A stretch of DNA of 64,000 bases from an uncultured Flavobacteriaceae bacterium. Lineage in GTDB: Bacteria; Bacteroidota; Bacteroidia; Flavobacteriales; Flavobacteriaceae. The stretch is taken from the NCBI GenBank assembly GCA_964351845.1, contig CAYGQJ010000013.1, forward strand, positions 7,182-71,181. The letters run 5' to 3'. This document shows positions 2,742 to 53,474 of the stretch, one piece after another (the first letter of the stretch is position 1; the number at the start of each line of letters is the position of its first letter). The notes beneath the pieces were generated by a model. The model made no database searches, was not told the origin of the DNA, and saw only the letters and a list, made by a program, of their open reading frames with translations. The translations under genes and the position numbers were made by a program.

Positions 2742-5700
2742 ATGAAAAAACAATTATTTTCGTTTTTATTCGCAAGCCTTCTATCATTTCTAGGGTATGG
2801 ACAAATCACCATAGATGAATCCTTAACTACCCAAGAATTAGTAGAAGATGTTTTAATAAACTCATCTTGTGCTGAGGTTTCAAATATTGTGTCTTCCACA
2901 GGAACTGATTTTGGAGATGTAAATGGTATCGCCGCTTTTTCTGCAAACGGATCAGATTTTCCTTTTGAAGAAGGAATTTTATTAATGTCTGGGGATGTTC
3001 AAGCTGCCCCTGGTCCTAATACATCTACACAAAGTAATGGTGGTTGGCCTGGTGATGCAGATTTGGAAGCAAATACAACGGCTATAAACACGAACAATGC
3101 TTCTTTTATAGAGTTTGATTTCACCCCATTTATTGAGCAGATAAGTTTTAACTTTATCATGGCTTCTGAGGAATATGATCAGAACTTCGAATGTACGTTT
3201 TCTGATGCTTTTGCTTTCATACTAACGGATATTACCACAGGAGATGTACAAAATCTAGCTGTTTTACCTGGAACAACAATTCCTATAGAAGTAACTAATA
3301 TTCGTCCTGAAGTACCTGGACAGTGTGCCGCTGTTAATGAAGAGTTTTTTGATAGATATAATTTTCAACCTTTTAATGATGAAAACGCCGCTGCCACCAA
3401 CTTTAACGGTCAAACTGTTCAGCTTACAGCAATGGCCGACGTGGTATCAGGAAATCCATATAGAATAAAATTAGTAGTCGCCGATCAATCTGACAATGCC
3501 TTTGATATTGGCGTATTTTTAGAAGCAGGTAGTTTTAACATTGGTACTACAGATTTAGGAGATGATATATTACTTTCTAACGGAAATGCCGCTTGTGAAG
3601 GAGATACAATCACTCTTAACGCAGAAGACCCAGATGCTGTATCATACACATGGTTTATGGATGGCTCTGAAATTGTTGGAGAAACAAATCCTACGCTTGA
3701 CGTAACAGTGGCTGGAACCTATAGTGTAAGTGTAAGTCTTAACAACACAGATTGTACTATCGAAGATGAAATCGTTGTTGAGTTTATCACAGCTTCTGCT
3801 GTTGATCTTGGTGATGATATTGATGCTTGTGAAGGGGATATGGTTGTTTTAGATGTTGATATTCTCGATTCTTCAGCATCTTTCGCTTGGTTTTTTAATA
3901 GTGTCGTTCTTATCGATGAAACAGACGCTACACTTAATGTAACAGAAGCAGGAGAATATGCGGTTGTTGTTACTTTTAACTCAGGATGTACTTTTTCTGA
4001 TGTCGTTACTGTAGATTTTACAACAGCCCCTATTATCGAATTAGGAGAGACTATAAATAGCTGTTTAGTAGATCCTATTATCTTGGACGCAACACCATCT
4101 AATGTAGATCCTTCGACAGTTACGTATGCATGGTTCTTAGACAGTGTTGTGCTTATAGACGAAACAGCAGCAACATTAAGTGTTACTCAAGAAGGAGTAT
4201 ATACAGTCGTGGTTACTTTAGGACCTTGCACCATAACAGATAGTGTTACTGTCGCACCTCTTGCGGTTCTTTTTGAATTAGGAGATGATTTTAACACCTG
4301 TTTTGAGTCAACAGTCACACTAGATGCTACACCAACAAACGTTGATCCTGATGAAGCCACTTATGAATGGTCTCTTGATGGTAGTATTATAACTGGCGAA
4401 GAAGAAGCTACCCTCACCATAACAGAGGAAGGAACCTATGAGGTTACCGTGTCATTTGGAATTTGCTCTAATACAGATAGTATTACCGTTACACTAGCAA
4501 ATCCTGATGGGTCTCCATGTACAGATCCAGAACCAACAGATTGTACCGTATTAGATGCTGGTCCAGATTTAGAGGTAGATTGTGAAAATCCTTGTGTAGA
4601 TTTAGTAGCTTCTGTCATAACACTACCGTTTACATCTACATCTTCCTATAGAATAGCTCAAATAGAATGTCCTAATCCTCCAACTAGTGGAGACCCAACA
4701 AATCTAGAAATAGATGACCGTTGGAGTGAATTGATAGATTTACCTTTTACGTTTACATATTTCCAGAATGATTACACCAATCTTGTGATAGGTGCAAATG
4801 GTCAAATTTCTTTTAACCCAGCGTACGCTGGTGAAACGAATGGATGGAATTCTGAACCCGGAGAGCTTTTACCTTTTAATGATGAAGATGTAGAAGGACT
4901 AGATGCAGAATTCCCTTTTAATACTATTTATGGAGCCTTTCACGATATAAATCCTGGAGTAGCACCTACCGCACCAGATAGAATAAATTTCTTTGTAGAT
5001 GGTGATGCACCTTACAGAAGATTTATTGTGAACTTTGATATGGTTCCTCAATTTAGTTGTACTGAGTTATTAACTTCTCAACAAATCATACTCTATGAAT
5101 CTCTAAATGTTATAGACGTTAACATCATCAACAAACCTGTGTGTGAGCCATGGAATGACGGTCTTGCAACTTTAGGAATCATGGGGAATGACCTTACTGA
5201 ATTTGCGGTTCCTGATGGAAGAAACACAGGAGCTTGGGAGGCTTTTGATGAAAGCTGGAGATTTATTCCTGATGGCCCAGCTAGTGATGATAGCGTATTT
5301 ACTTGGTCTGACGAAGATGGCACTATATTAAGTAATGACTTAATATTTAATGTATGCCCAACAGAAACCACTACGTATACCGCGACATTAACAATCACTA
5401 ATCCTGATGGATCTACTTCTACACTCACTGATGATGTCACAGTCACAGCAAATGTTGTAGACTTTACTGTTGGATTAGGTGATGACCTAGCATTTTGTGA
5501 TGTAGCCTCTTTTGAGATTGTTCCTGAACTCGCTGGAGATGTGACAAATCCTACTTTCTTATGGAGTACTGCAGAAACGACAGAGACCATTACTGTAACA
5601 ACGTCTGGAACGTATACTGTTGAAGTAACCGTAGATGGCTGTGTCATGATGGACGAAATAACAATTACCTTTTTAGAAAGTCCTTGTACTGTAGATTCTG

Positions 5701-17320: not shown

Positions 17321-18379
17321 ATGAATTTAAAAACGTATCTATTCTTCGTTTTCCTTCTATCTTTTGCTTTCGCGAAAGCGCAAGACCAAAAAACCTACAA
17401 GCCACACACCATCGCTTTTTATAACGTAGAAAATCTTTTTGATACGGAAAATGATCCTATTACATTTGATGATGACCGTACGCCAGACGGAAAAGATCAT
17501 TGGACCGAAGCTATCTATGCAGATAAAATACAGAAAATGGCGCGTGTCATCTCAGAAATAGGCAAAGACATTACAAAAAATGCCCCTGCTATTATTGGAC
17601 TGGCTGAAATAGAAAATAGAAAAACCGTAGAGGCACTTGCTAATGATCCTCAATTACTAGACAAAGAGTATGGAATAGCCCATTTTGACTCCCCAGATCG
17701 AAGAGGAATTGATGTCGCTCTTATGTATCAGAAAGCAATATTTACGCCTATACACATTAGTAAACACGAGCTTATTATTTACACTAATGACGATGCTAAA
17801 AAACGTAAATATACACGCGATCAACTACTGGTTTCGGGTTTATTGGATGGGGATATGATTCATGTGATTGTCAACCACTGGCCTTCGCGTTCTGGTGGAG
17901 AAGCCCGAAGTCGTAAAAAACGTATGGCAGCGGCAGCACTTAATAAAAAAATCATAGATAGCCTTCAAAGTAATGACCCGTATGCAAAAATCATCACCAT
18001 GGGAGATCTTAACGACGACCCGACAAGCCCGAGTGTAAAAAAAGTATTGAAAGCTAAAGGAGATAAAGACAAAATAAAAGATAAGATGCTCTATAATCCT
18101 ATGGAGCCTATGTTTAAAAAAGGGATGGGTACCTTAGCTTATAGAGATGGTTGGAATCTTTTTGATCAAATCTTAATTACAGAACCCTTATTACGTAAAG
18201 AATATAGTTCCTACAGGTATTTTAAAGCGGGTATTTATAACAAAAATTACCTCAACACCCCAAAGGGTCGGTACAAAGGATATCCGTATCGCAGCTTTGC
18301 TAATGGAGGCTACACGGGAGGGTATAGTGATCATTATCCCGTATATATTGTCCTTATCAAAGAAGTAGCAGATAATTAG
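17321..18379 (+). CDS. Secreted endonuclease/exonuclease/phosphatase (EEP) family nuclease
   Basis: IAFYNVENLFDT, GLAEIEN, DRRGIDVAL, VNHWPSR, MGDLND, LFDQI, GYSDHYPV. Confidence 0.9.
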   Translation: MNLKTYLFFVFLLSFAFAKAQDQKTYKPHTIAFYNVENLFDTENDPITFDDDRTPDGKDHWTEAIYADKIQKMARVISEIGKDITKNAPAIIGLAEIENRKTVEALANDPQLLDKEYGIAHFDSPDRRGIDVALMYQKAIFTPIHISKHELIIYTNDDAKKRKYTRDQLLVSGLLDGDMIHVIVNHWPSRSGGEARSRKKRMAAAALNKKIIDSLQSNDPYAKIITMGDLNDDPTSPSVKKVLKAKGDKDKIKDKMLYNPMEPMFKKGMGTLAYRDGWNLFDQILITEPLLRKEYSSYRYFKAGIYNKNYLNTPKGRYKGYPYRSFANGGYTGGYSDHYPVYIVLIKEVADN

Positions 18380-34964: not shown

Positions 34965-35429
34965 TCAGACCCCTTTCAATAATCGTTTATCAAAAACAAT
35001 AGGAAGTTCATCCACAATCTTAACCTTAGAAAAATCAGGATGCTTTGGATTTATAAGAATATTATCATCTATGGGATTAATCGCCGAGGGAACGCTAAGG
35101 CATAAAAACTCAGCCTTCGCTACAAATTGATCTCCAATATCTAAAACAGTAGGATGTTCTGTTCTATGTATCCAATCTTCTGGCAAGTCCTCTAGAGCAA
35201 TACGACCCATGGTCATCGTCTTAGGAAATTCCAGTACGATAATTTTTAAATCTTTAGGAAATACATACACAGGAATATGCACTAATTTCTCAAGCATCGC
35301 CAGCGAACTATTTCCCGCTGTATAAAGCACCGAAGTCCCTTTACGGTTCCATCTTCCCCCATAAAGACGAGCCCCTTCGCCAGAGAGGTCTTTGGCATAG
35401 GTATCTTTGGCTATTCTATATACTCGCAT
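34965..35429 (-). CDS. RES domain toxin (NAD+ phosphorylase family)
   Basis: MRVYRIAK..Y..DLSGEGARLYGGRWN..G..VLYTA.NSSLAMLE.LVH, VPSAI, NILINPKHPDF. Confidence 0.92.
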   Translation of the reverse strand: MRVYRIAKDTYAKDLSGEGARLYGGRWNRKGTSVLYTAGNSSLAMLEKLVHIPVYVFPKDLKIIVLEFPKTMTMGRIALEDLPEDWIHRTEHPTVLDIGDQFVAKAEFLCLSVPSAINPIDDNILINPKHPDFSKVKIVDELPIVFDKRLLKGV

Positions 35430-35431
35430 AC

Positions 35432-35932
35432 TTATACGACGATACCATGAGCCATTCTATCTAATAAGATCTCTACAGAATCTATCCCGTAGGTGGTATC
35501 AAGCATAGACAACGGAGTTTGATTTTCAAAGGCGTAATTTGGGATACTTAACCATTTTCTAAACCCTTCTTTACTCCCAAAAAAATCCCATCCTTTTTCA
35601 AAGAGAATAGACACTTCAAGAATACGTTCTGTTTGAGGCGTAGATAATCGTTTTTTATCCTTGTGGATGCGCTCTAAGGTACGCTCAGAAATATGAAGTA
35701 ATTGTGCTAGCTCTTGTTTTGAAAAATCAAAAGCCTCTACAGCCAATAAAAATTTTGGATACGATAATCCTTCTCTAGAAACGTGAACTAATCGTAGCGT
35801 AGAACGATCTCCTACAGGGGTGTCACGCATAATAACTGCGGGTTCTGAAACTCCAGAAATATCAATATCACTCCCTGAAACTAAGTTTTGAACTAGGTTT
35901 CCAGATGTATTATAGGCCGTATCGTCACTCAT
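35432..35932 (-). CDS. Xre/MbcA/ParS antitoxin
   Basis: HTH (FSKQELAQLLHISERTLER), C-terminal WL..PN.AF..QTPLSMLDTTYGIDSV..LL.RMAHG; directly upstream of the RES toxin. Confidence 0.9.
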   Translation of the reverse strand: MSDDTAYNTSGNLVQNLVSGSDIDISGVSEPAVIMRDTPVGDRSTLRLVHVSREGLSYPKFLLAVEAFDFSKQELAQLLHISERTLERIHKDKKRLSTPQTERILEVSILFEKGWDFFGSKEGFRKWLSIPNYAFENQTPLSMLDTTYGIDSVEILLDRMAHGIVV

Positions 35933-35994: not shown

Positions 35995-38361
35995 TTAAGA
36001 TTTTGAAACTTTTATTTGCTGTTTCAACTGATTCCCCTCTGCATCTACGACCGTAATGATATAATCTCCTTCTTCGGGTAAAACAGCGAGTTCATGAAAG
36101 GTTTCCGTATCTCCTATAAATCTATCATTCAGATACCAAAACACCTTCGTATCTGGACGACGATGTGCTAGTTTGAGAATCAAATCATTTCGTTTTCCAT
36201 CAAAATCTTTTGGTAAGATAATATCCTCATTCTTTTTTGGATATATAAAGGACATGGGCTGCTCCCCTAATAGATCACAATCTGGATGCATAGATGGTAA
36301 TTCGTTGTAGTCAGGATGCTTATTCGCATAATAATAGGCAATCGCAGGAGAGAGGACAAATCGCACTTCAGAGGTCATTTGATCTAACGCATAACAATCT
36401 GAATTTACACGATAATTGCCAGAAGCGGTAACATAGATCTGTTTGTGATATGCACAAGACGCACTATGAATCCCCGCGTTTGGAGCTAAAATTGTTTTTG
36501 TATCAAGACAATACACACTTGCTAAGGCACCACTTTTTGAGCAAATAGTCACTTCAGTAAGCGCATCAAAGGGTTTAGCAAACCACCTCCCTTCATTAGG
36601 CAACGTACGCAATACATCAAAAAACAAAGGTGCCGCCGCTTGTATCCCTGTCACACCCGGTCGCCCCTCGCCATCTGCATTGCCTACCCAAACTCCAATA
36701 GCATATTGCGGAGTAACGCCCACTGCCCATGCATCTTTAAAACCATAACTTGTCCCCGTTTTCCAAGCAATAGGTTGTGCATCTTCATAAAACTGCCAAT
36801 ACTCTTCCCCAGAAGGTCTATTGACTTCTCGTAAGGTTTCTAACGTATGGTAGATAGCACCTGCATCAAAAATAGGCGGGTCTGCAAAAACAGTAGTTTC
36901 CTCATGAGAAGCGTGAGGCATATAGGAATAGCCTTGAAAAGCCGTTTTAGTATATTCACTAGAAGTCGCCGTATACGTATTTAAGGTATGTGCTAGACCT
37001 GCGTAGGTTTTTGTCACTTCCCATAAACTACTCTCAGCACCACCTAAAATAAGAGAAAGCCCATAATAATTCGCCGACTTGTCAATATGTGCAACTTCCA
37101 TCTCTTGTAAATTAGTATAAAATTTCTCTAACCCATACCTACGTAACATTCGTACTGCAGGCACATTAAGAGATCGCGCCAATGCATTACTCGCAGGAAC
37201 CACGCCTTGAAACTCTTTATCAAAATTCTGAGGTTGATATCCATTAATATACGTCGGAATATCAATCACCAAACTCTGCGGTAAAATATCCCCTGCATCC
37301 AACATCCCCGCATATAAGAAAGGTTTCAACACGCTTCCTGTACTTCTAGGACGCATCACAATATCTACATCTTTTTGATGCTGACTCGTCGTAGGAGCAT
37401 TACCCACATAACCGATCACTTCTTTTGTAGCAACGTCCATGACAACAATAGCGAGGTTATAAATCTCATTTTGCTGCAATTGCGCATGATGCGCTTGAGC
37501 CAACCGATTCAACTCCTTTTGTACGGTATGTTGAATGGTAGTTTTCACTCGTTTTCCAGTATGTTCTTTACGGATGCGTTCGGTGAGATGCGGTGTTATT
37601 TGGGGTAATGGATAAGGTTTTCCTGGCAATTCTTCCAATATTGAAAGTTGATACGTACGCTCATCAATAATTCCTTTTTTCCATAGCTTTTCTAGAAGTT
37701 GATTCCGCTTTCGCGAAAGCGTACCCTCATTCTTCCCCGGCCGCACCATCGACGGGTTATTGGGGAGTACCGCTAGTGCCGCGCTTTGTCCCCAACTCAG
37801 TTGATGCGCCGGAAGCCTAAAATACCGCCAAGCTGCTGTTTCTAGGCCTACCACATTCCCGCCAAAAGGCGCATACGTCGCATACATCGATAGAATCTCC
37901 TCTTTTGAATATCTCGTCTCTAGACGCGTAGCTTTTACAAGTTCTAAAAGTTTTTCTGTGTAGGTACGTTGGGTATTTTTTCGCGAAAGCCTAATCACCT
38001 GTTGCGTAAGGGTACTTCCGCCGCGTCGTTTGTCGGTGGTGAGGTTTCCATAAATAGCTTTTCCCATCGCTACAGGATTAAATCCTGGATGCGAATAGAA
38101 ATACTCATCTTCAAACAACAAAAGACTCTGCTCAAACCGATACGGCACACTATCTAATGCCGGAAATCGCCATTGCCCATCATCTGCAATACGAGCGCCC
38201 AATAAATCCCCTGTACTACTCTCTACCACCGTCGATGTCGGATCTTTAAACAACGTAGCCGGTAAACAAAACAACCAATACAAAACCACCAACGCAAACA
38301 CCGAAAGCTTGATTTTATGCTTTCTAAGTTTAGAAATGACCTGTTGTTTGTTGATGTTCAC
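35995..38361 (-). CDS. pbpC: Penicillin-binding protein 1C
   Basis: FEDEYFYSHPGFNP, GGSTLTQQVIRL, RSTGSVLKPF, SLNVPAV, KTGTSYGFKDAW, C-terminal PbpC domain. Confidence 0.95.
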   Translation of the reverse strand: MNINKQQVISKLRKHKIKLSVFALVVLYWLFCLPATLFKDPTSTVVESSTGDLLGARIADDGQWRFPALDSVPYRFEQSLLLFEDEYFYSHPGFNPVAMGKAIYGNLTTDKRRGGSTLTQQVIRLSRKNTQRTYTEKLLELVKATRLETRYSKEEILSMYATYAPFGGNVVGLETAAWRYFRLPAHQLSWGQSAALAVLPNNPSMVRPGKNEGTLSRKRNQLLEKLWKKGIIDERTYQLSILEELPGKPYPLPQITPHLTERIRKEHTGKRVKTTIQHTVQKELNRLAQAHHAQLQQNEIYNLAIVVMDVATKEVIGYVGNAPTTSQHQKDVDIVMRPRSTGSVLKPFLYAGMLDAGDILPQSLVIDIPTYINGYQPQNFDKEFQGVVPASNALARSLNVPAVRMLRRYGLEKFYTNLQEMEVAHIDKSANYYGLSLILGGAESSLWEVTKTYAGLAHTLNTYTATSSEYTKTAFQGYSYMPHASHEETTVFADPPIFDAGAIYHTLETLREVNRPSGEEYWQFYEDAQPIAWKTGTSYGFKDAWAVGVTPQYAIGVWVGNADGEGRPGVTGIQAAAPLFFDVLRTLPNEGRWFAKPFDALTEVTICSKSGALASVYCLDTKTILAPNAGIHSASCAYHKQIYVTASGNYRVNSDCYALDQMTSEVRFVLSPAIAYYYANKHPDYNELPSMHPDCDLLGEQPMSFIYPKKNEDIILPKDFDGKRNDLILKLAHRRPDTKVFWYLNDRFIGDTETFHELAVLPEEGDYIITVVDAEGNQLKQQIKVSKS

Positions 38362-38391: not shown

Positions 38392-38574
38392 ACCCCTTCC
38401 GTCAATAGCGCCGCTCTCGCTTCACTATTGCCACCTTCCCTGCCAGGGGAAGGAGCTCATGAGATAGTTATCTTTTAAACTTGGTGGAAATCTATTTGAT
38501 TTTCACCCCTTTTTAAGGCTCTCCTCCTTGAAAGGGAGGAGTGGCATTCGCCCAAGCGAATGACGAGGTGGGTC
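38392..38574. repeat. Family F hairpin pair (F1 forward 38392-38456, F2 reverse 38515-38574) downstream of DUF559
   Basis: ACCCCTTCCGTC-[hairpin]-GCCACCTTCCC..GGGGAAGGAGC and an inverted relative; repeated at 39017-39201. Confidence 0.88.
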
Positions 38575-38585
38575 AACCATCATCT

Positions 38586-38975
38586 TCATACCTCACATTC
38601 CTCATCTCCCAAAAAATGATCCTCAATATCCTTCAAAACACTCGGTAGCAAATTAAAAACCATCTTATTCTCAAACCGAATTACCGTTAACCCCTTGGAT
38701 GCCAGAAACTGTGTTCGTTTCTCATCTTTTTCTTGAGCCGTTGGATTCATATGAGGTTGCCCGTCTAATTCTATGACTAACTTCTCCGAAGCACAATAAA
38801 AATCAACGATATACTTCCCAACCCCATGCTGTCTTCTAAATTTTCTCCCCGCTAATTTTCGTTCTTTCAAATGATTCCACAAAAACGCCTCCGCTGATGT
38901 CAACCCATTACGCAATGATTTTCTAAAACCTTTCGTGTATTCCGGATCGTGGAGTTTTGGCTTTTTACTTCTCAA
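38586..38975 (-). CDS. DUF559 (Vsr-like) endonuclease domain protein
   Basis: RKSLRNGLTSAEAFLWNHLK..KLAGRKFRRQH.VGKYIVDFYC...KLVIELDG..H...DEKRT.FL...GLTVIRFEN. Confidence 0.92.
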   Translation of the reverse strand: MRSKKPKLHDPEYTKGFRKSLRNGLTSAEAFLWNHLKERKLAGRKFRRQHGVGKYIVDFYCASEKLVIELDGQPHMNPTAQEKDEKRTQFLASKGLTVIRFENKMVFNLLPSVLKDIEDHFLGDEECEV

Positions 38976-39016
38976 AATTGTGTTTTTTGTATTTCCTATT
39001 ATATTCTACTATTTTC

Positions 39017-39201
39017 ACCCCTTCCGTCAATAGTACCGCTCTCGCTCTACTATTGCCACCTTCCCCTGCTAGGGGAAGGAGCACTTACTAACTTTATTTT
39101 TTTTACAAGAGAAGCTATTTGTTTCTATACTTACTTTTTAAAAGCTCCCCTCATTGAAAGGGAGGAGTGGCATTTGCCAAAGGCAAATGACGGGGTGGGT
39201 C
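39017..39201. repeat. Family F hairpin pair (F1 39017-39082, F2 39141-39201) upstream of DUF559
   Basis: Near-identical direct repeat of the two elements at 38392-38574, with stem-preserving changes. Confidence 0.88.
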
Positions 39202-39230: not shown

Positions 39231-42200
39231 CTACTTCTCAATCTCAACCCATGCCCCTTTATTACGTGCATAATATGTATTATCATACATCGCCTCTACC
39301 TGAGTACCTGGTAAATAATATTTCCCTAAATAGGAGGCATTTAAACGGACCGTAAAGGTTTTTGTGGAAGTTTTACTCAAATCAAAGTAAAAATTGACAC
39401 GATCATCGCGTATGTCTGTATATCTAGCAGCCCCTTCTGTTCCGCCTGCATCTTCTGTAAAACGGGTATTTACAATTTCCCATCCGCTTGGAAAGATTTG
39501 TGTAAGGGCTATATTGTCTACAAAATCACGACTGTCATTACTGACACTAATTTTAGCCACAAACTCTTCGCCTTGTCTCAACTTGGTAATGTCTATTTGT
39601 TGACCATCTGCACCCACAAACCGTGTCGTTACTGTAAGCTTACTAATCCCTGACAGCTCTTCCCCCAACGGTAATTTTCCGCTTTGGACGACACGAACAA
39701 ACACCACATTGTCTTTCGCATTTTGAAGGGTAATGGTATTAGCACCTTCTTTCGTTACTAAATCTCGCAGCGCAATCGCTTGTTGGGTATCAATCGTCAT
39801 TGATTTTCCATCTTTGGCATACTCCAACTTAATCGACTTCCCACCATTTTTGATCACCATTTTAGCCATGGCTAGTAACGCATAACTCGTTTCCTGCGTA
39901 CTTAACCAACGCTCTGACGACAAGGTTTTAGCCATAGAAATAGCAAGGTCTTTTTGCTTGGCGTCACCCATCGCGACCATCGTTTCTAATGCCATCGCGC
40001 GATTACGGAACACAGATCCATACGTATGATAATTACTTCTGTTAGGTTGAAAATCAATGTTTGCAGTGGCTGCTAATTCTTCAGCAGCTTTTGTTTGCCC
40101 TGCGAGTGCGTATGCTGCCGCCAATCGCCATTTGCTGTCATTGCTTAGGTTTCTGCTTTCGCGCAAGCGGTTCATCGCCGCAAGATCAGGTTGACCTGCA
40201 AGTGCTAAGGTGTATAAACGATACGCTTGTACAAGGGTCGTATTATACGCACGTTCCCCAGATCGCCACTCACGAGCCGTTTTTTTCTGAAAACGCAGCC
40301 AATTACTCATAAATGTAAGCGGTAAAGCATAGCCTTTTTTCTGTGCTTCGATCATAAAATGTCCCGCATAGTTGGTACCCCAAGTATCCGCAACCGTTTC
40401 ACCTTGCCAATAGCCTAATCCGCCATCTGCATTTTGAAAATTCCCTAATCGTTCGATCCCTCGCTTGATGTTTTCTTGTGCTTTTTGTTTTTGCTCAAAC
40501 GTCAAATCAAACACATCATCCATAAATAATTGTGGAAACGCACCCGATGTGGTTTGCTCTACACACCCATGCGGATACCGAATTAAGTACTGCATCCGTT
40601 TGGTGAAATCCATAGGAGGTAGCGTAGAAAACTCAATCGCCGACTCGTTAGATCCTGCGACCCCGAAGGTTGAATAATCAATGGTTAGACTCCCTGATGC
40701 AGGCAACTCATAATCGGTCACTTTTTGGGTGATCGGATTCGGGTTTTCAACATCTATTTCTACTTGATAGGTCGCACGTTCTCCATTTCCTTCAGCAATG
40801 ATTTCGATGGTTTGGATCTCATTCACGGCCGTCACATCAAATTCAAAAGGAACAATTTGCTCGCCTACAGAAGAGAAATTAATCGTCTTGGTCGTGCCAT
40901 CTGTAGCCTTAAATGCTGCCGAAGTTTTGACAGTAATTTTAGCTTGTTTAATGGTAGACTCCATCGCAAAAACGGTCACAGGCAAGGTTACGTGTTCGCC
41001 CGGAGATAGCTTTCGCGGAAGCGAACCTAACACCATCAATGGCTTACGAACAGGAACTGTTTTTTCGGCAGCACCATAGGCAGATGCGGTAGGATCGCCT
41101 GCCACCACCATCGCACGTACCGAACCGACATAATTAGGCATCTGTATCGTGTGGGTTTTGGTTTCATTTTCGCTTAAAGCGAAAGGACCTAAATATGTCA
41201 CCACCGGCTTAAAACGTTCTGCTTTTCTGTTTTTTGCAGCCGCAGCAGCATCGCCCCCACCGATTGCATAAATGTTTCCTACACTTCCTGAATAAGCGCC
41301 GATCACATCATCAAACATGTCAAAGGTCATTACGCCTAACGCTTCTCTGCTGTAAAAATGATTGTGAATGGCGGGGGTTTTATAACGTGTCAAGTCCAGC
41401 AAACCGTCATCTACCACCGCAATGGTATAGGTCATGGCTTTGGCGTTGGCCTCACTTACTTTGATGGTATAGGATTCCTCAGGCTTGAGGACATCAGGCA
41501 TCGTGATTTTAGGCGTAAGTATGGTATTTTGATCTTCAACCAGCAACGGAATCACACCATATAATCGAATAGGCAAATCATTTTTAGTTTGCTCGTGAGC
41601 TTGCAATAAGGAGATATTGACATAGACATTGGGTGCCATATCTGAAGTCACCGGAATCTTGAATTGTGTTTCGCCATTTTGAGCATCTACCCACCAACTG
41701 TCCAATACTTGAGTTCCATTTTCTAGGCTGATCAGCGCACGCGAACTATCACCGGACGGAAACGTAATGGTCGCCGCTTCCCCGACTTGATATTTTTCTT
41801 TATCTGACGAGAATACTAGCATTTTAGCACTTTCCGAATCACTTTGCAAACCACTCCAATTGCGATAAAAATACGCAATACGCCCCGTGGCATGTCCGCT
41901 TTCTGGATCAATTACTCGAATCAAATACCGCCCACTTTCTCTTTCTGGAATATTGACCGTAAAACTGGTTTTACCGTTATTCCCTGTGGTGACTTTAAAA
42001 TCTTTTACAGGCGTATGCACGGTGCCAACTTCGTAGTTGGAATAGTTATCGCGACCGCGACTCCACCACCAGCGCCAATTCATTTTAAATACTTGTACAT
42101 CCAACGTTCTGTTGCCTGCAGCTTTTCCTTTGGTGTTAGTGGTCACAACATCAAACTCGGTGTTATCATCGGTAAAATAGCTGCCGTAGGCACGTCCTTT

Positions 42201-44828
42201 GGGCGATTGTACCCCTACAAAATGATCAAAAGGGGCGATGTCTTTAGTAACGACATCTAATGAGAAGTCACCGCCGCCTTCATATGCTTTGGTTACAAAA
42301 GTTCCTTTCAGCATACCCGGAGCACGCTCGCTGAGTGCTAACTTTTGACTGATATTTGTACTCCCTTCTTCATTTAATTGACCGTCAAGTACCGTAAGTT
42401 CTACGTCATTAAAACTGCGAATAGGATCAAAGAAATGATAGGTAGGGTAGGTTTTGAAACCACTGTTAGAACTCCGAATCGTCACATCCGATTTAATCTT
42501 GAGATTACGTGCAGGGGCTCCGTGCAACCACGTAACTTTTGCAGTCCCCTCTAACGCACCGCTCGCATCTATGATATCATCTTCAAAGTCTAAGTTGACT
42601 TTTAACCGATTGGGTTTGATGGTTTCTACTTTTAAGGTTTTAGAAAAACTAGCACCGCCTACACTTACCGTCGCATTCCAATTTCCCGTAGGATCTGTGG
42701 GTGCGGTAGTAATCGGGAAATAATACACGTTATTGAGTGCTTTTCCTGTGTTTGATACAGTATTTGCCGTGAGCACCTTGCGATAGGTTAATTTTCCTCT
42801 GGCATCACTGACTTCTAATTTTACAGGATGGTCTTTGGGCAATGGATTGTTAGCATCATTCAACACAAACGAAAGGTGAATACTATCACCCGGACGATGT
42901 ACGCCTCGCTCGGTATACAAATATCCTTTGAGCCCTTTTTGTAATTGTTTTCCAGAAATATCAAATTTGCTCATAGAAAGGGCATTCCCGTCTTCTATTT
43001 TTAAATAGGCATAGTTGGCGCCTTTTTGAGCAACAGCAAATACGGCGTATCCTTTGGGCGTAATCGTCGCAAGCCCTGTGGCATCTGTCGTTACACTGCC
43101 AATGGGTTGTTTTTGATAATTATATAGAGTGATTTTAGTATTGGCTTCAGGCGTCGTGGTTACGATATCTGTCGCAGCAAAATGATAGCCATTATCTTTT
43201 CCTTTTTTGACAATCAACGCAAGATCCGAGCCTAAAATATTGCTCTGGATAAACCGATCTTCTTGGTAATAGGCGGGATGACACGGGTTATCTTCTTGTC
43301 GCCAATTATACACTTGATTTCGCCAACGATAGATTCTATTATCCCAATATTGCTCTTCGCGCTCGTCTTCATTGGTACTTTCTACCTCGGTAAAGTCCTC
43401 GTCATAATAATCTTCTTCATAATAGTCATCATAGGTGTCTTCTTCTACCTGTGTGCCATCGTCTACACATTCATAAGCGACATAGCTTTGCTTGTAACTG
43501 ATCTCTACCCGATACAATGCTCCTGGATCTGCCTGAAAGATCTTAGAAAGATCAATGCCGTGCACACGCCACTGACTATCGCCTACATCACTTGACTGAA
43601 AACTAGCATCTTCTAGCGTGATGGTTTTCTTTGTGACACGTCTTCCAACTTGCTTTAATCCATAGCTATTATTACTATTTAGGTTATTTTCCTGTAAATA
43701 TTCTAGTACATTATTTTCGTATATTTTTATGATCCGCACATCGACATGGCTCAAATTAACGGCTTCAAAATAGAACGGATTGCTTCCTGATTTAGGCAAA
43801 ACCACACCATTTGTAATCGCTCGAAGTGCGGGTTTTAACTGCTCAAAAGAAACGGTTTCTGCAAAAGGGGTTTTTAGTTTAAATCCATCGGTACTTTTAA
43901 TGCCTTGAAAAACCTCCACAAGGGATTTCCCTACAATCTTATTTTCTGGGTACACATTGAGGACATTGCCATCGACTTCAAAACGTAAATTTCCAGCTCG
44001 CTGAATCGTCACTAAGCCCTTAAAATTTTGTTTGTCTTGTAACGGATCTGAAAAATTGATCGTCAACGACGCATTGGCACCCAGTCTTTGATTGATTTTT
44101 ACAATTTTAAAATTATTACGCCCAGGAATTAGCACCTCATTATCCCCTTTTGTTTCATCGGCATCTATGGCATCGCCATCCCAACTGACTTGAATTTTCG
44201 TATCTTCTGTTTCTCTACGAATGCTATCTATTTTAAACACATGATAGCGAGCGGTGGTTTGATCACTCAACCACGTAATGGAGAGCGGTTTTCCGTTTTG
44301 AGTCGCTTGTATGAGTTGTTTTGCTTTCGCGAAAGCGATCACATCGGCACCCTCAACTTGCCCTTCTAGATATTGATATTCCCGATCATACGATTGTAAG
44401 GCACGGAGATCTACTTTGAAATCTGGGGTAATGGTTTTGAAACCAAACGCAAACGTGCGCATCTCTTTAGGAAGGTCGTCATAGAGTTTATCCAGACGCA
44501 CCTCCACCGAATATTCGGTGTCCGCTTCAAGAAGTCCATCAGGCACAAATTTTAAGGTGCGCTGTCCAGAAACCGTCAATGTTCCCGACGTTTTAGGTGT
44601 AATTTTCAAAATCTCTGAAGGGATTTCTTGATCGACTTCAAACTGCGTCAACGCCTTTGCTACCTGCACGGTAATTGGGTTTGCAATAGACTGCCTACCA
44701 CTTGTGGAATACGAGATATACTCCTTGTATTTAAACAAGTTATCAGTAGGTTGTTCAGTGCCTTTTTTATCACAAGTGATAAATAAAAGCGGTAGGACGA
44801 CGGCGAGAAGAAGATGAATTTTACGCAT
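39231..44828 (-). CDS. Bacterial alpha-2-macroglobulin (MG2/YfhM family) lipoprotein
   Basis: Lipobox LFITC, YLYTERGVHRPGD, VVDDGLLDLT, thioester motif PHGCVEQ, RDDRV, VEAMY. Confidence 0.95.
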   Translation of the reverse strand: MRKIHLLLAVVLPLLFITCDKKGTEQPTDNLFKYKEYISYSTSGRQSIANPITVQVAKALTQFEVDQEIPSEILKITPKTSGTLTVSGQRTLKFVPDGLLEADTEYSVEVRLDKLYDDLPKEMRTFAFGFKTITPDFKVDLRALQSYDREYQYLEGQVEGADVIAFAKAKQLIQATQNGKPLSITWLSDQTTARYHVFKIDSIRRETEDTKIQVSWDGDAIDADETKGDNEVLIPGRNNFKIVKINQRLGANASLTINFSDPLQDKQNFKGLVTIQRAGNLRFEVDGNVLNVYPENKIVGKSLVEVFQGIKSTDGFKLKTPFAETVSFEQLKPALRAITNGVVLPKSGSNPFYFEAVNLSHVDVRIIKIYENNVLEYLQENNLNSNNSYGLKQVGRRVTKKTITLEDASFQSSDVGDSQWRVHGIDLSKIFQADPGALYRVEISYKQSYVAYECVDDGTQVEEDTYDDYYEEDYYDEDFTEVESTNEDEREEQYWDNRIYRWRNQVYNWRQEDNPCHPAYYQEDRFIQSNILGSDLALIVKKGKDNGYHFAATDIVTTTPEANTKITLYNYQKQPIGSVTTDATGLATITPKGYAVFAVAQKGANYAYLKIEDGNALSMSKFDISGKQLQKGLKGYLYTERGVHRPGDSIHLSFVLNDANNPLPKDHPVKLEVSDARGKLTYRKVLTANTVSNTGKALNNVYYFPITTAPTDPTGNWNATVSVGGASFSKTLKVETIKPNRLKVNLDFEDDIIDASGALEGTAKVTWLHGAPARNLKIKSDVTIRSSNSGFKTYPTYHFFDPIRSFNDVELTVLDGQLNEEGSTNISQKLALSERAPGMLKGTFVTKAYEGGGDFSLDVVTKDIAPFDHFVGVQSPKGRAYGSYFTDDNTEFDVVTTNTKGKAAGNRTLDVQVFKMNWRWWWSRGRDNYSNYEVGTVHTPVKDFKVTTGNNGKTSFTVNIPERESGRYLIRVIDPESGHATGRIAYFYRNWSGLQSDSESAKMLVFSSDKEKYQVGEAATITFPSGDSSRALISLENGTQVLDSWWVDAQNGETQFKIPVTSDMAPNVYVNISLLQAHEQTKNDLPIRLYGVIPLLVEDQNTILTPKITMPDVLKPEESYTIKVSEANAKAMTYTIAVVDDGLLDLTRYKTPAIHNHFYSREALGVMTFDMFDDVIGAYSGSVGNIYAIGGGDAAAAAKNRKAERFKPVVTYLGPFALSENETKTHTIQMPNYVGSVRAMVVAGDPTASAYGAAEKTVPVRKPLMVLGSLPRKLSPGEHVTLPVTVFAMESTIKQAKITVKTSAAFKATDGTTKTINFSSVGEQIVPFEFDVTAVNEIQTIEIIAEGNGERATYQVEIDVENPNPITQKVTDYELPASGSLTIDYSTFGVAGSNESAIEFSTLPPMDFTKRMQYLIRYPHGCVEQTTSGAFPQLFMDDVFDLTFEQKQKAQENIKRGIERLGNFQNADGGLGYWQGETVADTWGTNYAGHFMIEAQKKGYALPLTFMSNWLRFQKKTAREWRSGERAYNTTLVQAYRLYTLALAGQPDLAAMNRLRESRNLSNDSKWRLAAAYALAGQTKAAEELAATANIDFQPNRSNYHTYGSVFRNRAMALETMVAMGDAKQKDLAISMAKTLSSERWLSTQETSYALLAMAKMVIKNGGKSIKLEYAKDGKSMTIDTQQAIALRDLVTKEGANTITLQNAKDNVVFVRVVQSGKLPLGEELSGISKLTVTTRFVGADGQQIDITKLRQGEEFVAKISVSNDSRDFVDNIALTQIFPSGWEIVNTRFTEDAGGTEGAARYTDIRDDRVNFYFDLSKTSTKTFTVRLNASYLGKYYLPGTQVEAMYDNTYYARNKGAWVEIEK

Positions 44829-45083: not shown

Positions 45084-45143
45084 AGCCCTCTCTGCCTTTC
45101 ATAGATATCTCCCAAGCCCTCTCTCTACCTTTCAAGGGAGAGT
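45084..45143. repeat. Degenerate family F-like CCCTCTC elements
   Basis: AGCCCTCTCTGCCTTTC...AGCCCTCTCTCTACCTTTCAAGGGAGAG, similar to 58545-58580. Confidence 0.45.
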
Positions 45144-48458: not shown

Positions 48459-49952
48459 TTACTCCACCACCTCAAAGGCTTGAATCGCGGCATTAGGCTC
48501 CATAATGGTATAGCCTGTCCAAAACGTAGGATCGTATTTTGATAAATAAGTCGCTTCTACGTTTTCATTTTCTGAAGCCGCTTCATAGGCGGTACTTGAA
48601 ATATCTTCTGAGTTAAAAATAACCATCTCATATTTAGACAAAGACGTTCCTTGCATATCGATGTTCAGCGAAAGCTCATTTTGCTTACGACGGCCTTTGA
48701 CAAATTTGTTTTTTTCGATCACTTTTAACGGGCGATCGATGCCAAAATAGTTTCCATTTTCTAACTCCAAATACCGCGGACTATAACTTCCACTGGCATT
48801 TTTAGCAAATAGCATTTTTCCTCTGTAGACATTTTCACCGTACTTAATCCCTAATAACCCAAAGGTAAATAGCGGACGCACATTGTCAAATTCTAAGCGT
48901 ACAATGGCAAAATCATCGATGTTGACAAATGCGGTTCCTTTAAAGTCTTTTTTGCCTTTGGGCGAAAAGTCAATAATATACACTGGCTCCTCATCGATAA
49001 ACGTATAATCTCTGATTTCAAACTCATACCGATTCGATTTTGTGAGGATATCAATCTTAGAATCTTCATTAAAAAAAAGTTGGGTGTACAGTTCGGAAAT
49101 ACGATTTTTAATCTGTTCTTGGAAGTCTTGATTATTGGCATTTTCGACCTCTACCTTTACTTTATTGGCATCTTCATTGGCCGCAGTAATAGAGTCTAAT
49201 TGTACTTTGGTTCCAAAAAGTCCCGACTTAATTTTAAGGTAGGAATTAGGTTTTACATTTTCTTTAAAAATGGTTTCCAGGCGTTCACTGAGTCCGTCGA
49301 CAGAGACATCTTTGGACTTATCATACAGCTCGGCTGCTTTATCTACATATAGCTTATGCTTATTGTAATTCCCATAAAAATCACCGACGGCTTCGCGATA
49401 ATAGGAAGATTCACGCGGGACAAGCGTTGCAATGCTATCAATCAATTCTTTGTCAAGCTCTTCTATTGTTGATTTTTTAAAGGCGAAATCTACTTTTTTC
49501 ATCGCATTAAAATCCGACTGCCTAAAGAAAATTTTCTTTTTAGATAATTCTTGAACATCGTAGTTTTTATACATATTTTCTTTGACTTTCTCAATCACTT
49601 CTTTGGCAGAAAGCGGATTGCTAGAAAGAAAAACACCTTTCAGCTCGAATGATTTTGGCGAAAGCCGCACCAGACTATCTGTAAGGGAGGCTACCCAAAT
49701 TCCTTTACGTTCATACCCCATGGATGAGATATACACAGAGTCTTGTATTTTTTTAAGTTGGTCAGGATTGATGGTAAACATCCCATCTTCATTTGAAATC
49801 ACGCCTTGATTTTCTGAAAGTTCAATGGTCGCAAACGGAATCGGTTCTTGTGTTTTGTCATCAATAAGTCTGGCTGATACGGTTTGTGCGGTCATTCCTG
49901 ATACGAGGAATGCAGACAAGAGCATTAAAATGTATTTGATAAGTGTGGTCAT
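48459..49952 (-). CDS. Secreted protein with carboxypeptidase-like regulatory (D_2) N-terminal domain
   Basis: VSARLIDDKTQEPIPFATI...GVISNEDGMF...ISSMGY; YDPTFWTGYTIMEP C-terminus. Confidence 0.8.
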   Translation of the reverse strand: MTTLIKYILMLLSAFLVSGMTAQTVSARLIDDKTQEPIPFATIELSENQGVISNEDGMFTINPDQLKKIQDSVYISSMGYERKGIWVASLTDSLVRLSPKSFELKGVFLSSNPLSAKEVIEKVKENMYKNYDVQELSKKKIFFRQSDFNAMKKVDFAFKKSTIEELDKELIDSIATLVPRESSYYREAVGDFYGNYNKHKLYVDKAAELYDKSKDVSVDGLSERLETIFKENVKPNSYLKIKSGLFGTKVQLDSITAANEDANKVKVEVENANNQDFQEQIKNRISELYTQLFFNEDSKIDILTKSNRYEFEIRDYTFIDEEPVYIIDFSPKGKKDFKGTAFVNIDDFAIVRLEFDNVRPLFTFGLLGIKYGENVYRGKMLFAKNASGSYSPRYLELENGNYFGIDRPLKVIEKNKFVKGRRKQNELSLNIDMQGTSLSKYEMVIFNSEDISSTAYEAASENENVEATYLSKYDPTFWTGYTIMEPNAAIQAFEVVE

Positions 49953-53192: not shown

Positions 53193-53474
53193 CCGGCATT
53201 TCGGTACAATTTATAAAGTGCTTTCAGCACTTTATAAATCACTCAATGTCCTAGCAGTGTTACAATGTAACAAACACACCCCTTAATCCCCTACTTCGAC
53301 AAGCTCAGCACAGCGTCTTTCTAGAGGGGAAACTCATACTTTAAATGTTTTAAAACTAAATGTAAGGTGGCTGAGTGATTTCGAAGCATGAGAAATAGTA
53401 TCGAAGCCACCGAGTCAAGAACTCAATGTAAGGTGGCTGCCTGTTTTGCTGAAAGCAAAAGGTACCGAAGCCCC
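53193..53474. repeat. Mosaic unit 5: inverted Y, an F hairpin with a C insert, two inverted X copies
   Basis: Y 53193-53251; CCCCT|24 nt|CTTTCTAGAGGGG 53288-53329; X 53365-53410 and 53430-53474. Confidence 0.85.

Follow-up and report, generated by a model that had tools for sequence, protein, structure and literature searches.

Among described systems, the one closest to the locus examined here is the partnership of REPINs, which are doublets of repetitive extragenic palindromes (REPs), with REP-associated tyrosine transposases (RAYTs); CGTC-tagged REPs, Vsr-like homing endonucleases, the IS200/IS605 insertion sequences (ISs) and recombination between direct repeats provide further points of comparison. 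To our knowledge, no enzyme is known to make or maintain many of the REP-like families, the CGTC-tagged ones among them, and we know of no role assigned to DUF559, a very large family of small nucleases. According to Di Nocera et al. (2013, PMC3733652), the CGTC-tagged REP superfamily occurs in Bacteroidetes, alpha-Proteobacteria and Neisseria, mostly as head-to-head pairs, and 'apparently lack[s] a dedicated transposase'. Here, we describe a DUF559 gene in a 64,000-nucleotide stretch of DNA (the window; contig CAYGQJ010000013.1) from an uncultured Flavobacteriaceae bacterium. The gene is located between two direct copies of a ~185-nt hairpin unit, in the spacer that separates the genes for a bacterial alpha-2-macroglobulin (A2M) and a pbpC-type penicillin-binding protein. 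We propose that DUF559 and the double-hairpin modules of these units form one conserved cassette, a nuclease together with its own REP-like repeats, because the association is statistically strong and recurrent across phyla; the chances that this reading is correct are, in our judgement, about even.

The DUF559 gene and its flanking units

The gene order on the minus strand is A2M, unit R, DUF559, unit L and pbpC. A previous reading made from the letters of the window (the sequence-only reading) had placed a 129-aa DUF559 gene between A2M and pbpC, and the Pfam matches and open reading frame (ORF) coordinates agree with this. The features are as follows.

39231..44828, minus strand: bacterial A2M gene, the upstream neighbour; 1865 aa, with Pfam matches A2M_BRD, bMG3/5/6/10, MG2, A2M and TED.
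39017..39201, minus strand: unit R, the copy of the ~185-nt hairpin unit nearer to A2M; repeats unit L directly, is orthologous in Dokdonia ponticola and the metagenome-assembled genome (MAG) CAYYSK, and shows covariation.
39144..39201, minus strand: A module of unit R (F2 in the sequence-only reading), with a profile match at 39145-39198 (E=2e-9) and covariation; composed of the tail GACCCACCCCG, the CGTC-tagged hairpin hp1 (CATTTGCC/GGCAAATG), CCAC and the polypyrimidine/polypurine hairpin hp2.
39017..39082, minus strand: B module of unit R (F1 in the sequence-only reading), with core pattern, profile match and covariation; composed of the hairpin hp3 (CCTTCCCC/GGGGAAGG), TGG, the hairpin hp4 (CAATAGTA/TACTATTG) and the tail TGACGGAAGGGGT.
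38586..38975, minus strand: gene for a DUF559, predicted Vsr-like PD-(D/E)XK nuclease; 129 aa, with an uncertain TTG start.
38392..38574, minus strand: unit L, the copy of the hairpin unit nearer to pbpC, recognised by direct repetition, fold energy and covariation.
38518..38574, minus strand: A module of unit L (F2), composed of GACCCACCTCG, hp1 (CATTCGC/GCGAATG), CCAC and hp2 (CTCCTCC/GGAGGAG).
38392..38456, minus strand: B module of unit L (F1), with core pattern, profile match and covariation.
35995..38361, minus strand: gene for a pbpC-type penicillin-binding protein, the downstream neighbour; 788 aa, with Pfam matches Transgly, Transpeptidase and BiPBP_C.

The flanking units are in direct orientation with a start-to-start spacing of 625-627 nt, and are 85% identical by mean column identity (MAFFT) or 81% by local alignment. 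This direct-repeat alignment agrees with the earlier description of the same two-part F1 plus F2 unit on each side of the gene. When up to three mismatches are allowed, a 36-nt unit core matches at the two units alone in the 64 kb, with no match expected from shuffles. Each unit is made up of F1 (the B module), a ~60-nt AT-rich spacer and F2 (the A module), and on the gene strand the order in each is A module, AT-rich spacer, B module. F2, correctly recognised from the letters as an inverted relative of F1, is a diverged one, with TGCCAC and a polypyrimidine/polypurine hairpin common to both. The units carry imperfect terminal inverted repeats (TIRs; ACCCnCCTCGTCA / TGACGGAAGGGGT), their ends read GACCCACC... 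and ...GGAAGGGGT, and no target-site duplication is seen at them. The reading as an integron gene cassette was rejected, the unit ends having no attC core sites (RYYYAAC / GTTRRRY). A 13-nt exact repeat, ATTTTCACCCCTT, is found at 38499-38511 in the spacer of unit L and at 39011-39023 at the start of unit R. At these points, alternative joins are seen in contigs from other samples, which suggests more small rearrangements inside the units.

Single-strand folding of the two units is much stronger than that of shuffled sequences (z = -4.9 and -3.8). The inner stems had been reported to differ between the two sides and yet to pair: the change from CATTCGC/GCGAATG to CATTTGC/GCAAATG is indeed a genuine compensatory one and AATAGTA/TACTATT pairs completely, but AATAGCG/CACTATT contains one G.A mismatch. 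Across the eight orthologous Dokdonia units, 93% of cells are paired, and two-sided changes occur in six pairs (11 cells), four of which belong to hp4 (CAATAG/CTATTG, CTATTC/GAATAG, CAATTG/CAATTG). The covariation score is reached by 0/500 shuffles, and sliding the partner by 1-3 columns as a control lowers pairing to 45-55%. Neither fold energy (lower in the sense strand for 20 units and in the antisense strand for 18) nor G.U content (115 vs 126 of 1518 pairs) shows a strand bias among 38 units from 19 loci. A search of Rfam with the window units and 11 related loci found no family, returning only sub-threshold look-alikes of miRNA precursors, such as long hairpins would be expected to give. 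Because of this lack of a strand difference in energy or G.U content and of an Rfam match, we read the units as DNA-level, probably strand-symmetric structures rather than as strand-specific RNA.

The protein matches the DUF559 profile PF04480 with E=1e-32 (112.7 bits vs a cut-off of 20.6; Pfam). A weak match to MTES_1575 REase is the only other one in Pfam, and the same scan finds no HUH Y1 (IS200-like) transposase domain in the 129 aa. Identity as an equivalog of E. coli YcjD was rejected, since NCBIfam PRK09767 scores 78 bits, under the equivalog cut-off of 218. By sequence, it matches the PDB entry 3HRL, a solved Neisseria DUF559 protein (2e-19). An AlphaFold2 model with a predicted local distance difference test (pLDDT) score of 85.8 was compared with known structures by Foldseek, which retrieved 3HRL (E=6e-8, TM 0.63/0.86) and, as the nearest characterised fold, the catalytic domain of I-Bth0305I (3R3P; E=1e-4, TM 0.58/0.74). 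Hence, the protein is predicted to have a Vsr-like alpha/beta nuclease fold. H9, E29, W33, E64, E69, H75, R87, R100 and N103 are invariant in 28 relatives, and D58 and D71 are nearly so. The model fits a site-specific DNA nuclease of selfish ancestry. PD-(D/E)XK enzymes are hydrolytic nucleases that do not join or ligate DNA; because a hydrolytic nuclease is unable to join DNA, DUF559 is no transposase in the RAYT sense.

History and copy number of the cassette in Dokdonia

Exact-sequence searches with the window's DUF559, with L or M as its first residue, gave no contig on record. The nearest homologues of the DUF559 protein are found in Dokdonia, and the copy numbers for the source genome were read from that of D. 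ponticola, whose DUF559 is 93% identical at the amino acid level. The arrangement A2M-unit-DUF559-unit-pbpC is also present in D. ponticola and in the Flavobacteriaceae MAG CAYYSK. When a single genome of each GTDB species was scanned for a 19-mer from the core of the unit, four Dokdonia-type genomes alone gave matches, in every case between A2M and pbpC. Genomes with DUF559 contain the 19-mer twice; the two MAGs in which A2M-unit-pbpC is found without DUF559 contain it once. The comparison of these spacers, which had been proposed from the letters, thus finds the cassette in some relatives and a solo unit in others, and it fits the statement that A2M and pbpC are normally adjacent: relatives without DUF559 have one unit alone between the two genes.

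Identities of the flanking genes place the window and D. ponticola, both with DUF559, together with a MAG that does not have it, and CAYYSK, with DUF559, together with CB59, without it. The nucleotide identity of DUF559 is 0.889 vs 0.886/0.868 for the flanks in one comparison and 0.789 vs 0.782/0.737 in the other, and dN/dS (the ratio of nonsynonymous to synonymous divergence) is 0.07-0.12. The two Dokdonia clades are so far apart that their synonymous sites are saturated (dS 1.2-2.6), and they show 74-79% identity in coding DNA, while the A module is 91%, the B module 79% and the spacer 60% conserved. The A module of unit L is 96% identical to the copy in the distant clade, vs ~78% for coding DNA. 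The simplest history would be a single old insertion that was passed on by vertical descent and lost twice independently. A third loss is seen at the strain level: a marine metagenome contig joins the start of pbpC to unit R, without DUF559 and one unit, in a strain ~98% identical, and DUF559-bearing contigs are present in the same metagenome. Judged from these alignments, the cassette has been lost at least three times, with one solo unit left each time. The solo units are of two types, one being more like the copy next to pbpC and another more like the copy next to A2M; crossovers at different points between direct repeats would produce both. In CAYYSK, the two units differ at 1 nt, which points to gene conversion.

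Taken as a whole, the cassette at this locus is old, syntenically fixed, vertically inherited and not recently mobile. The sequence-only reading had held that orthologues both fixed in place and free of flanking repeats would speak against its idea; they are fixed, but in Dokdonia they always carry the units. With regard to homing endonucleases, presence/absence polymorphism at one site is found (two MAGs and the metagenome contig), whereas the homing signature, a gene more alike between lineages than its flanks, is not seen, as DUF559 diverges like its flanks.

The unit is not a genome-wide repeat in Dokdonia, as its core 19-mer is present at this locus alone in the D. ponticola genome, and a profile search of the window finds the four flanking modules and no others. 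DUF559 had been nominated as a candidate driver of hairpins at 45084, 53288 and 58545 and perhaps of the other repeat families of the window. The profile search rejects all three hairpins as members of the F family: the elements at 45084 and 58545 have a ~20-nt hairpin in common with F2 and no more, and the one at 53288 has nothing. The other families are unrelated, and neither part of the proposal is supported. A relationship of the element at 53288 to a GIY-YIG-associated unit of Dokdonia sinensis was likewise rejected.

Several other features of the window were observed. A 14-nt palindrome, GCTTTCGCGAAAGC, occurs 11 times in the 64 kb (0 expected from shuffles), at 17366, 22814, 30476, 33366, 37707, 44323, 50129, 50621, 57436, 58531 and 61084. 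Some copies are within coding sequence (pbpC, A2M), related copies are found in D. sinensis (L009), and it looks like a genus-wide over-represented palindrome. Between 47638 and 53460, a different hairpin family (..CCGGGGCTTCGGTAC.. and its inverse) occupies successive intergenic spacers, and in this region a 497-aa CarboxypepD_reg-like gene (48459-49952) is located between direct copies 1821 nt apart. Directly downstream of pbpC are genes for a RES-domain toxin and an Xre/ParS-MbcA-type antitoxin (34965-35429 and 35432-35932), identified by size and by synteny with the annotated D. ponticola locus.

The repeat association among relatives and in other phyla

Flanking repeats were sought at 80 metagenomic loci coding for DUF559 proteins 48-69% identical to that of the window, by aligning the 330 nt upstream of an ORF with the 330 nt downstream and scoring the alignment against shuffles. 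Direct flanking repeats are present at 26/51 usable standalone DUF559 genes, far above every shuffle; these repeats are 25-215 nt long, 81-99% identical and adjoin the ORF. When the three orthologous Dokdonia loci and the cases of tandem gene copies are removed, 20/44 remain. By comparison, 3/134 other ORFs of the same loci pass the test, namely a GIY-YIG gene, a transposase beside a DUF559 gene and a spurious ORF in a unit array. In 377 kb of related loci, the module profile has 85 matches, of which 82 are within 300 nt of a DUF559 gene, a zone that makes up 13% of the sequence. This single-profile map misses many modules recognised by eye (for example in L009, L015 downstream and L017), which leaves the module orders read from it incomplete, and it is used for positional enrichment alone.

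One grammar of A and B modules is found across relatives at 50-69% amino acid identity, in differing genomic contexts that include recQ in D. sinensis and ligase-Lhr. The arrangement is A-spacer-B/gene/A-spacer-B in the window and B-spacer-A/gene/B-spacer-A in D. sinensis, and B-spacer-A/gene/A and inverted flanks also occur; the modules therefore act as mosaic building blocks and not as fixed ends. Salegentibacter sp. JZCK2 (L010:9529-10786) has three tandem DUF559 genes with a 417-nt period and 92-93% nucleotide identity, each preceded by the same hairpin. In a metagenome contig (L017:451-2189), an array of ~300-nt repeats surrounds one intact DUF559 gene. It contains four copies of a gene remnant plus unit, the remnant being the last ~75 nt of DUF559 followed by a complete A-spacer-B, and two of the array copies are 98% identical.

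Further observations concern the neighbourhood of these genes. At L043:822-2213, a DDE (IS4-type) transposase gene next to DUF559 is located between strong direct repeats (score 224), where an IS may have inserted into a unit array. Other DUF559 genes (L111, L102, L091 and L104/L110) are within gene pairs or operons that are conserved apart from them, namely sufB-sufC, yqeY-dnaG, DNA ligase-Lhr helicase and the hpa catabolic genes. In D. sinensis (L009:3019-3651), a gene for a GIY-YIG nuclease of 101 aa (3186-3491) is found between ssb and recQ, with direct repeats of ~155 nt on either side. These repeats are 85-100% identical, contain internal inverted repeats and belong to a separate family (CCTTCGACTCCGCTCAGG...). 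A second small-nuclease family therefore has the gene-between-repeats arrangement.

Outside Bacteroidota, DUF559 genes were found by tblastn of a plasmid collection, in which some mislabelled chromosomes are included, and 19 loci were examined. Repeated modules are present on both sides of the gene in 8/19 loci and on one side in 5 more. The two-sided cases are those of Neisseria gonorrhoeae (the 3HRL gene), Sinorhizobium meliloti, Azospirillum lipoferum, Picosynechococcus, Pseudanabaena, Sphingomonas, Sphingobium and Deinococcus aetherius, and the module-bearing groups comprise alpha- and beta-Proteobacteria, Cyanobacteria and Deinococcus. The modules have in common a C-rich tail (CCCCTCACCC[T/C]AAC) and, after it, a hairpin with the arms CCCTCTCCCC and GGGGAGAGGG. 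The S. meliloti unit occurs in at least 39 places in one replicon and in 1077 places in 224 Rhizobiaceae records, the N. gonorrhoeae repeat in 21-26 places per genome and the Sphingomonas unit in ~22 places over its replicons, and DUF559 is found in one or two places per record in the genomes with dispersed repeats. The presence of tens of dispersed units around one or two DUF559 genes, as read from these Sinorhizobium and Neisseria sequences, corresponds to the REPIN/RAYT pattern. Some proteobacterial modules (L097:1300-1445, L102:1040-1160) have a G-rich strand with four G-runs, for example GGGGAGAGGGTTAGGGTGAGGGG, and a G-quadruplex could compete with the hairpin.

Explanations and comparison with known systems

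We hypothesize that the cassette was inserted between A2M and pbpC in an ancestor of the sampled Dokdonia lineages and was afterwards inherited vertically, with the protein under purifying selection. Homologous recombination between the direct units deletes the cassette repeatedly, leaving one solo unit per deletion, and recombination between units also accounts for the tandem arrays elsewhere. The modules might be DNA sites that are bound or nicked by the nuclease, as hairpins, cruciforms or duplex, and host repair or recombination would then copy, homogenise or spread them; host repair would be needed because this enzyme class cannot join DNA alone. The Dokdonia system would be nearly sedentary, with like modules forming dispersed families in Proteobacteria. 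The sequence-only reading had proposed a REPtron-like element built on this nuclease. The gene-between-hairpin-repeats layout and the dispersed families in Sinorhizobium and Neisseria agree with such an element, but in Dokdonia there is no dispersed family and the cassette has not recently been mobile.

A number of points weigh against a nuclease-repeat partnership. There is no dispersed repeat population in Dokdonia, and so no sign of the nuclease spreading anything there. The cassette did not leave its single site even as synonymous divergence rose above 1.5, and it evolves in a housekeeping-like manner; this sedentary history is as compatible with a domesticated or purely cellular function as with a selfish one. 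Solo units are well conserved without an adjacent gene, and the unit may thus have a function of its own, while templated repair of quasi-palindromes could yield compensatory-looking changes without selection. Any mobility would need host functions, PD-(D/E)XK nucleases being unable to ligate. Finally, about half of the related DUF559 genes are without a flanking repeat by the test used, and modules are absent at the E. coli, Photobacterium and P. aeruginosa loci and at three others.

The alternative that survives best, although we consider it unlikely, is that DUF559 is a free-standing, homing-endonuclease-like selfish gene and that the modules are its expression or insulation signals and not its substrates; they would terminate the upstream gene, control translation of the nuclease and re-start the downstream gene, and be carried along with the gene. 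For free-standing homing endonucleases of the Vsr-like type, conserved hairpins are described in the 5' untranslated region, and a hairpin stays after gene loss (PMC2677866). The resemblance to I-Bth0305I in fold also favours this view, as does the location of DUF559 inside conserved pairs or operons (A2M-pbpC, ligase-Lhr, sufB-sufC, yqeY-dnaG). In addition, hp2-type polypyrimidine/polypurine hairpins followed by T-rich runs are terminator-like, and similar lone hairpins follow other genes of the window (45121-45142). However, a scan with a simple terminator consensus calls neither hp2 nor hp3, and the conserved tails and hp1/hp4 exceed what a terminator needs. A sigma-70 consensus scan, which does not cover Bacteroidota promoters, scores TTGACG in the B-module tail as -35-like. 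An RNA signal should show a strand bias, and the structures have none. The units of Sinorhizobium and Neisseria, moreover, occur 20-40 times per genome away from any DUF559, and DUF559 is no more alike between lineages than its flanks, giving no sign of homing.

It is rather improbable that the units are pre-existing REP- or BIME-like (bacterial interspersed mosaic element) host repeats in or beside which a DUF559 element prefers to insert, the flanks thus being a target and not a partner. Several IS families target REPs, and both the many unoccupied copies in the dispersed families of Proteobacteria and the variable arrangement of modules around the gene, including inverted flanks, would be accounted for. 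Yet unoccupied modules are nearly absent from Dokdonia and the Bacteroidota-type loci (3/85 matches off DUF559, and none elsewhere in the window), and the restriction of the 19-mer to this locus in D. ponticola means that there is no target population. The module grammar, furthermore, tracks DUF559 across unrelated loci and phyla.

We regard as very improbable the idea that the units encode a structured RNA, such as a small RNA, a processing signal or a type III antitoxin-like repeat, that acts with or against the nuclease. The strong predicted folds and compensatory changes could be taken in this sense, and direct repeats beside a nuclease gene loosely recall ToxI/ToxN; a type III toxin-antitoxin reading was considered under this heading and set aside. 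Against it are the sub-threshold Rfam look-alikes in place of a family, the symmetry of the two strands in energy and G.U pairs, the near-palindromic unit, which occurs in either orientation relative to the gene, and the fold of DUF559, predicted to be that of a DNA nuclease; in addition, a search of RNA sequencing runs returned none that contains the region. Coincidence, in the form of two independent insertions of miniature inverted-repeat transposable elements (MITEs) in successive spacers of a repeat-rich genome, could appeal to the other intergenic hairpin repeats of the window and the imperfect MITE-like TIRs, but is effectively refuted by the presence of two copies alone, both beside the same 390-nt gene, by a layout found in three Dokdonia genomes and 26/51 relatives vs 3/134 controls, and by the absence of dispersed copies from D. 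ponticola (19-mer) and the window (profile).

The partnership of DUF559 with its modules can be extended to a broader proposal, possible though in our view doubtful: DUF559 would be the dedicated nuclease partner of a second cross-phylum REP-like superfamily, characterised by a C-rich tail and a polypyrimidine/polypurine hairpin and often occurring as inverted pairs. Such a RAYT-independent, REPIN-like system would be active, in the form of dispersed families, in Cyanobacteria as well as alpha- and beta-Proteobacteria, and in Flavobacteriia it would be reduced to a sedentary cassette with two copies of the repeat. DUF559 might also be the missing enzyme of the CGTC-tagged REPs. No published account of repeat-flanked DUF559 genes was found in a search outside of which most subscription journals lie, so that novelty is unproven; a general DUF559-repeat partnership appears to be undescribed. 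A link between DUF559 and repeats that reaches from Flavobacteriia to Rhizobiaceae, Neisseria, Cyanobacteria and Deinococcus bears on both the role of DUF559 and the enzyme behind REPs, and suggests that selfish or domesticated repeat-nuclease partnerships are not confined to HUH transposases. For annotation, it explains the small 'endonuclease domain-containing' genes that split conserved pairs (A2M-pbpC, sufB-sufC), the predicted N-termini of such genes, which often run into repeats, and the solo hairpin units that persist in such spacers.

Among known processes, the formation of solo long terminal repeats (LTRs) by recombination between direct repeats is similar in that solo units occur in three independent lineages, together with tandem arrays and a near-identical unit pair in one genome; the comparison covers loss, amplification and homogenisation of the cassette, but not its origin. 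As in IS200/IS605 elements, one small nuclease gene is located between same-orientation, hairpin-bearing ends in an element of ~0.6-0.8 kb, and no classical short target duplication is visible. In contrast to these elements, there is no HUH transposase and there are no multiple identical copies per genome, and the ends are complete near-palindromic units that also persist solo. Vsr-like homing endonucleases (the I-Bth0305I family and the endonucleases of 'fractured genes'; PMC2677866, PMC3239194) provide the nearest characterised fold, and they too combine a small nuclease gene wedged into a conserved gene arrangement with conserved hairpins beside the gene, of which one remains after loss (PMC2677866). 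However, theirs are phage- or intron/intein-associated, with hairpins that are upstream only and are read as RNA translational regulators, whereas here repeats are present on both sides, show no strand bias and are dispersed in some phyla, and nothing points to lateral homing between Dokdonia lineages.

The CGTC-tagged REPs can be compared with the modules through the portion of the superfamily's text description used here. Both hp1 and hp4 are CGTC-tagged, with A/T pairs at the start of the stem and with a (G)CCA tail; the loop of hp1 is 4 nt, and head-to-head pairs occur. hp1, which reads CGTC, ATTCGC, TTGG, GCGAAT and G-CCA-C in succession, fits that description except for its shorter stem. 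The stems here are 6-8 bp, vs the 8-9 bp described, the loop of hp4 is 12 nt vs 4-5 nt, and the module as a whole is larger than the hairpin, which forms just a part of it. Each Dokdonia genome, moreover, has two copies, whereas the CGTC-tagged REPs are high-copy and extragenic, and the hairpins that flank proteobacterial DUF559 genes (CGTC + CCCTCTCCCC...) lack the initial A/T. The resemblance is therefore partial, and serves as a lead.

REPIN/RAYT systems, as far as the parts of their published descriptions used here go, resemble the present one in several respects. The nuclease gene is found once or twice per genome between REPIN-like units of two inverted hairpin modules and a spacer, it is inherited vertically under purifying selection, and its flanking units are, in Sinorhizobium and Neisseria, members of extragenic families with tens of dispersed copies. 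The enzyme, in contrast, is predicted to be a Vsr-like PD-(D/E)XK hydrolase, whereas RAYTs are described as HUH Y1 transposases that act through a covalent intermediate and joining. The modules are ~60-nt double hairpins with a C-rich tail, and the REPs of that description are 20-40 nt long and GTAG-tagged. The units that flank DUF559 are, furthermore, mostly in direct orientation, and Dokdonia is without a dispersed repeat population. Because the enzyme class differs and this population is missing in Dokdonia, the Dokdonia cassette is not a member of the REPIN/RAYT group, though that group is the closest system to it.

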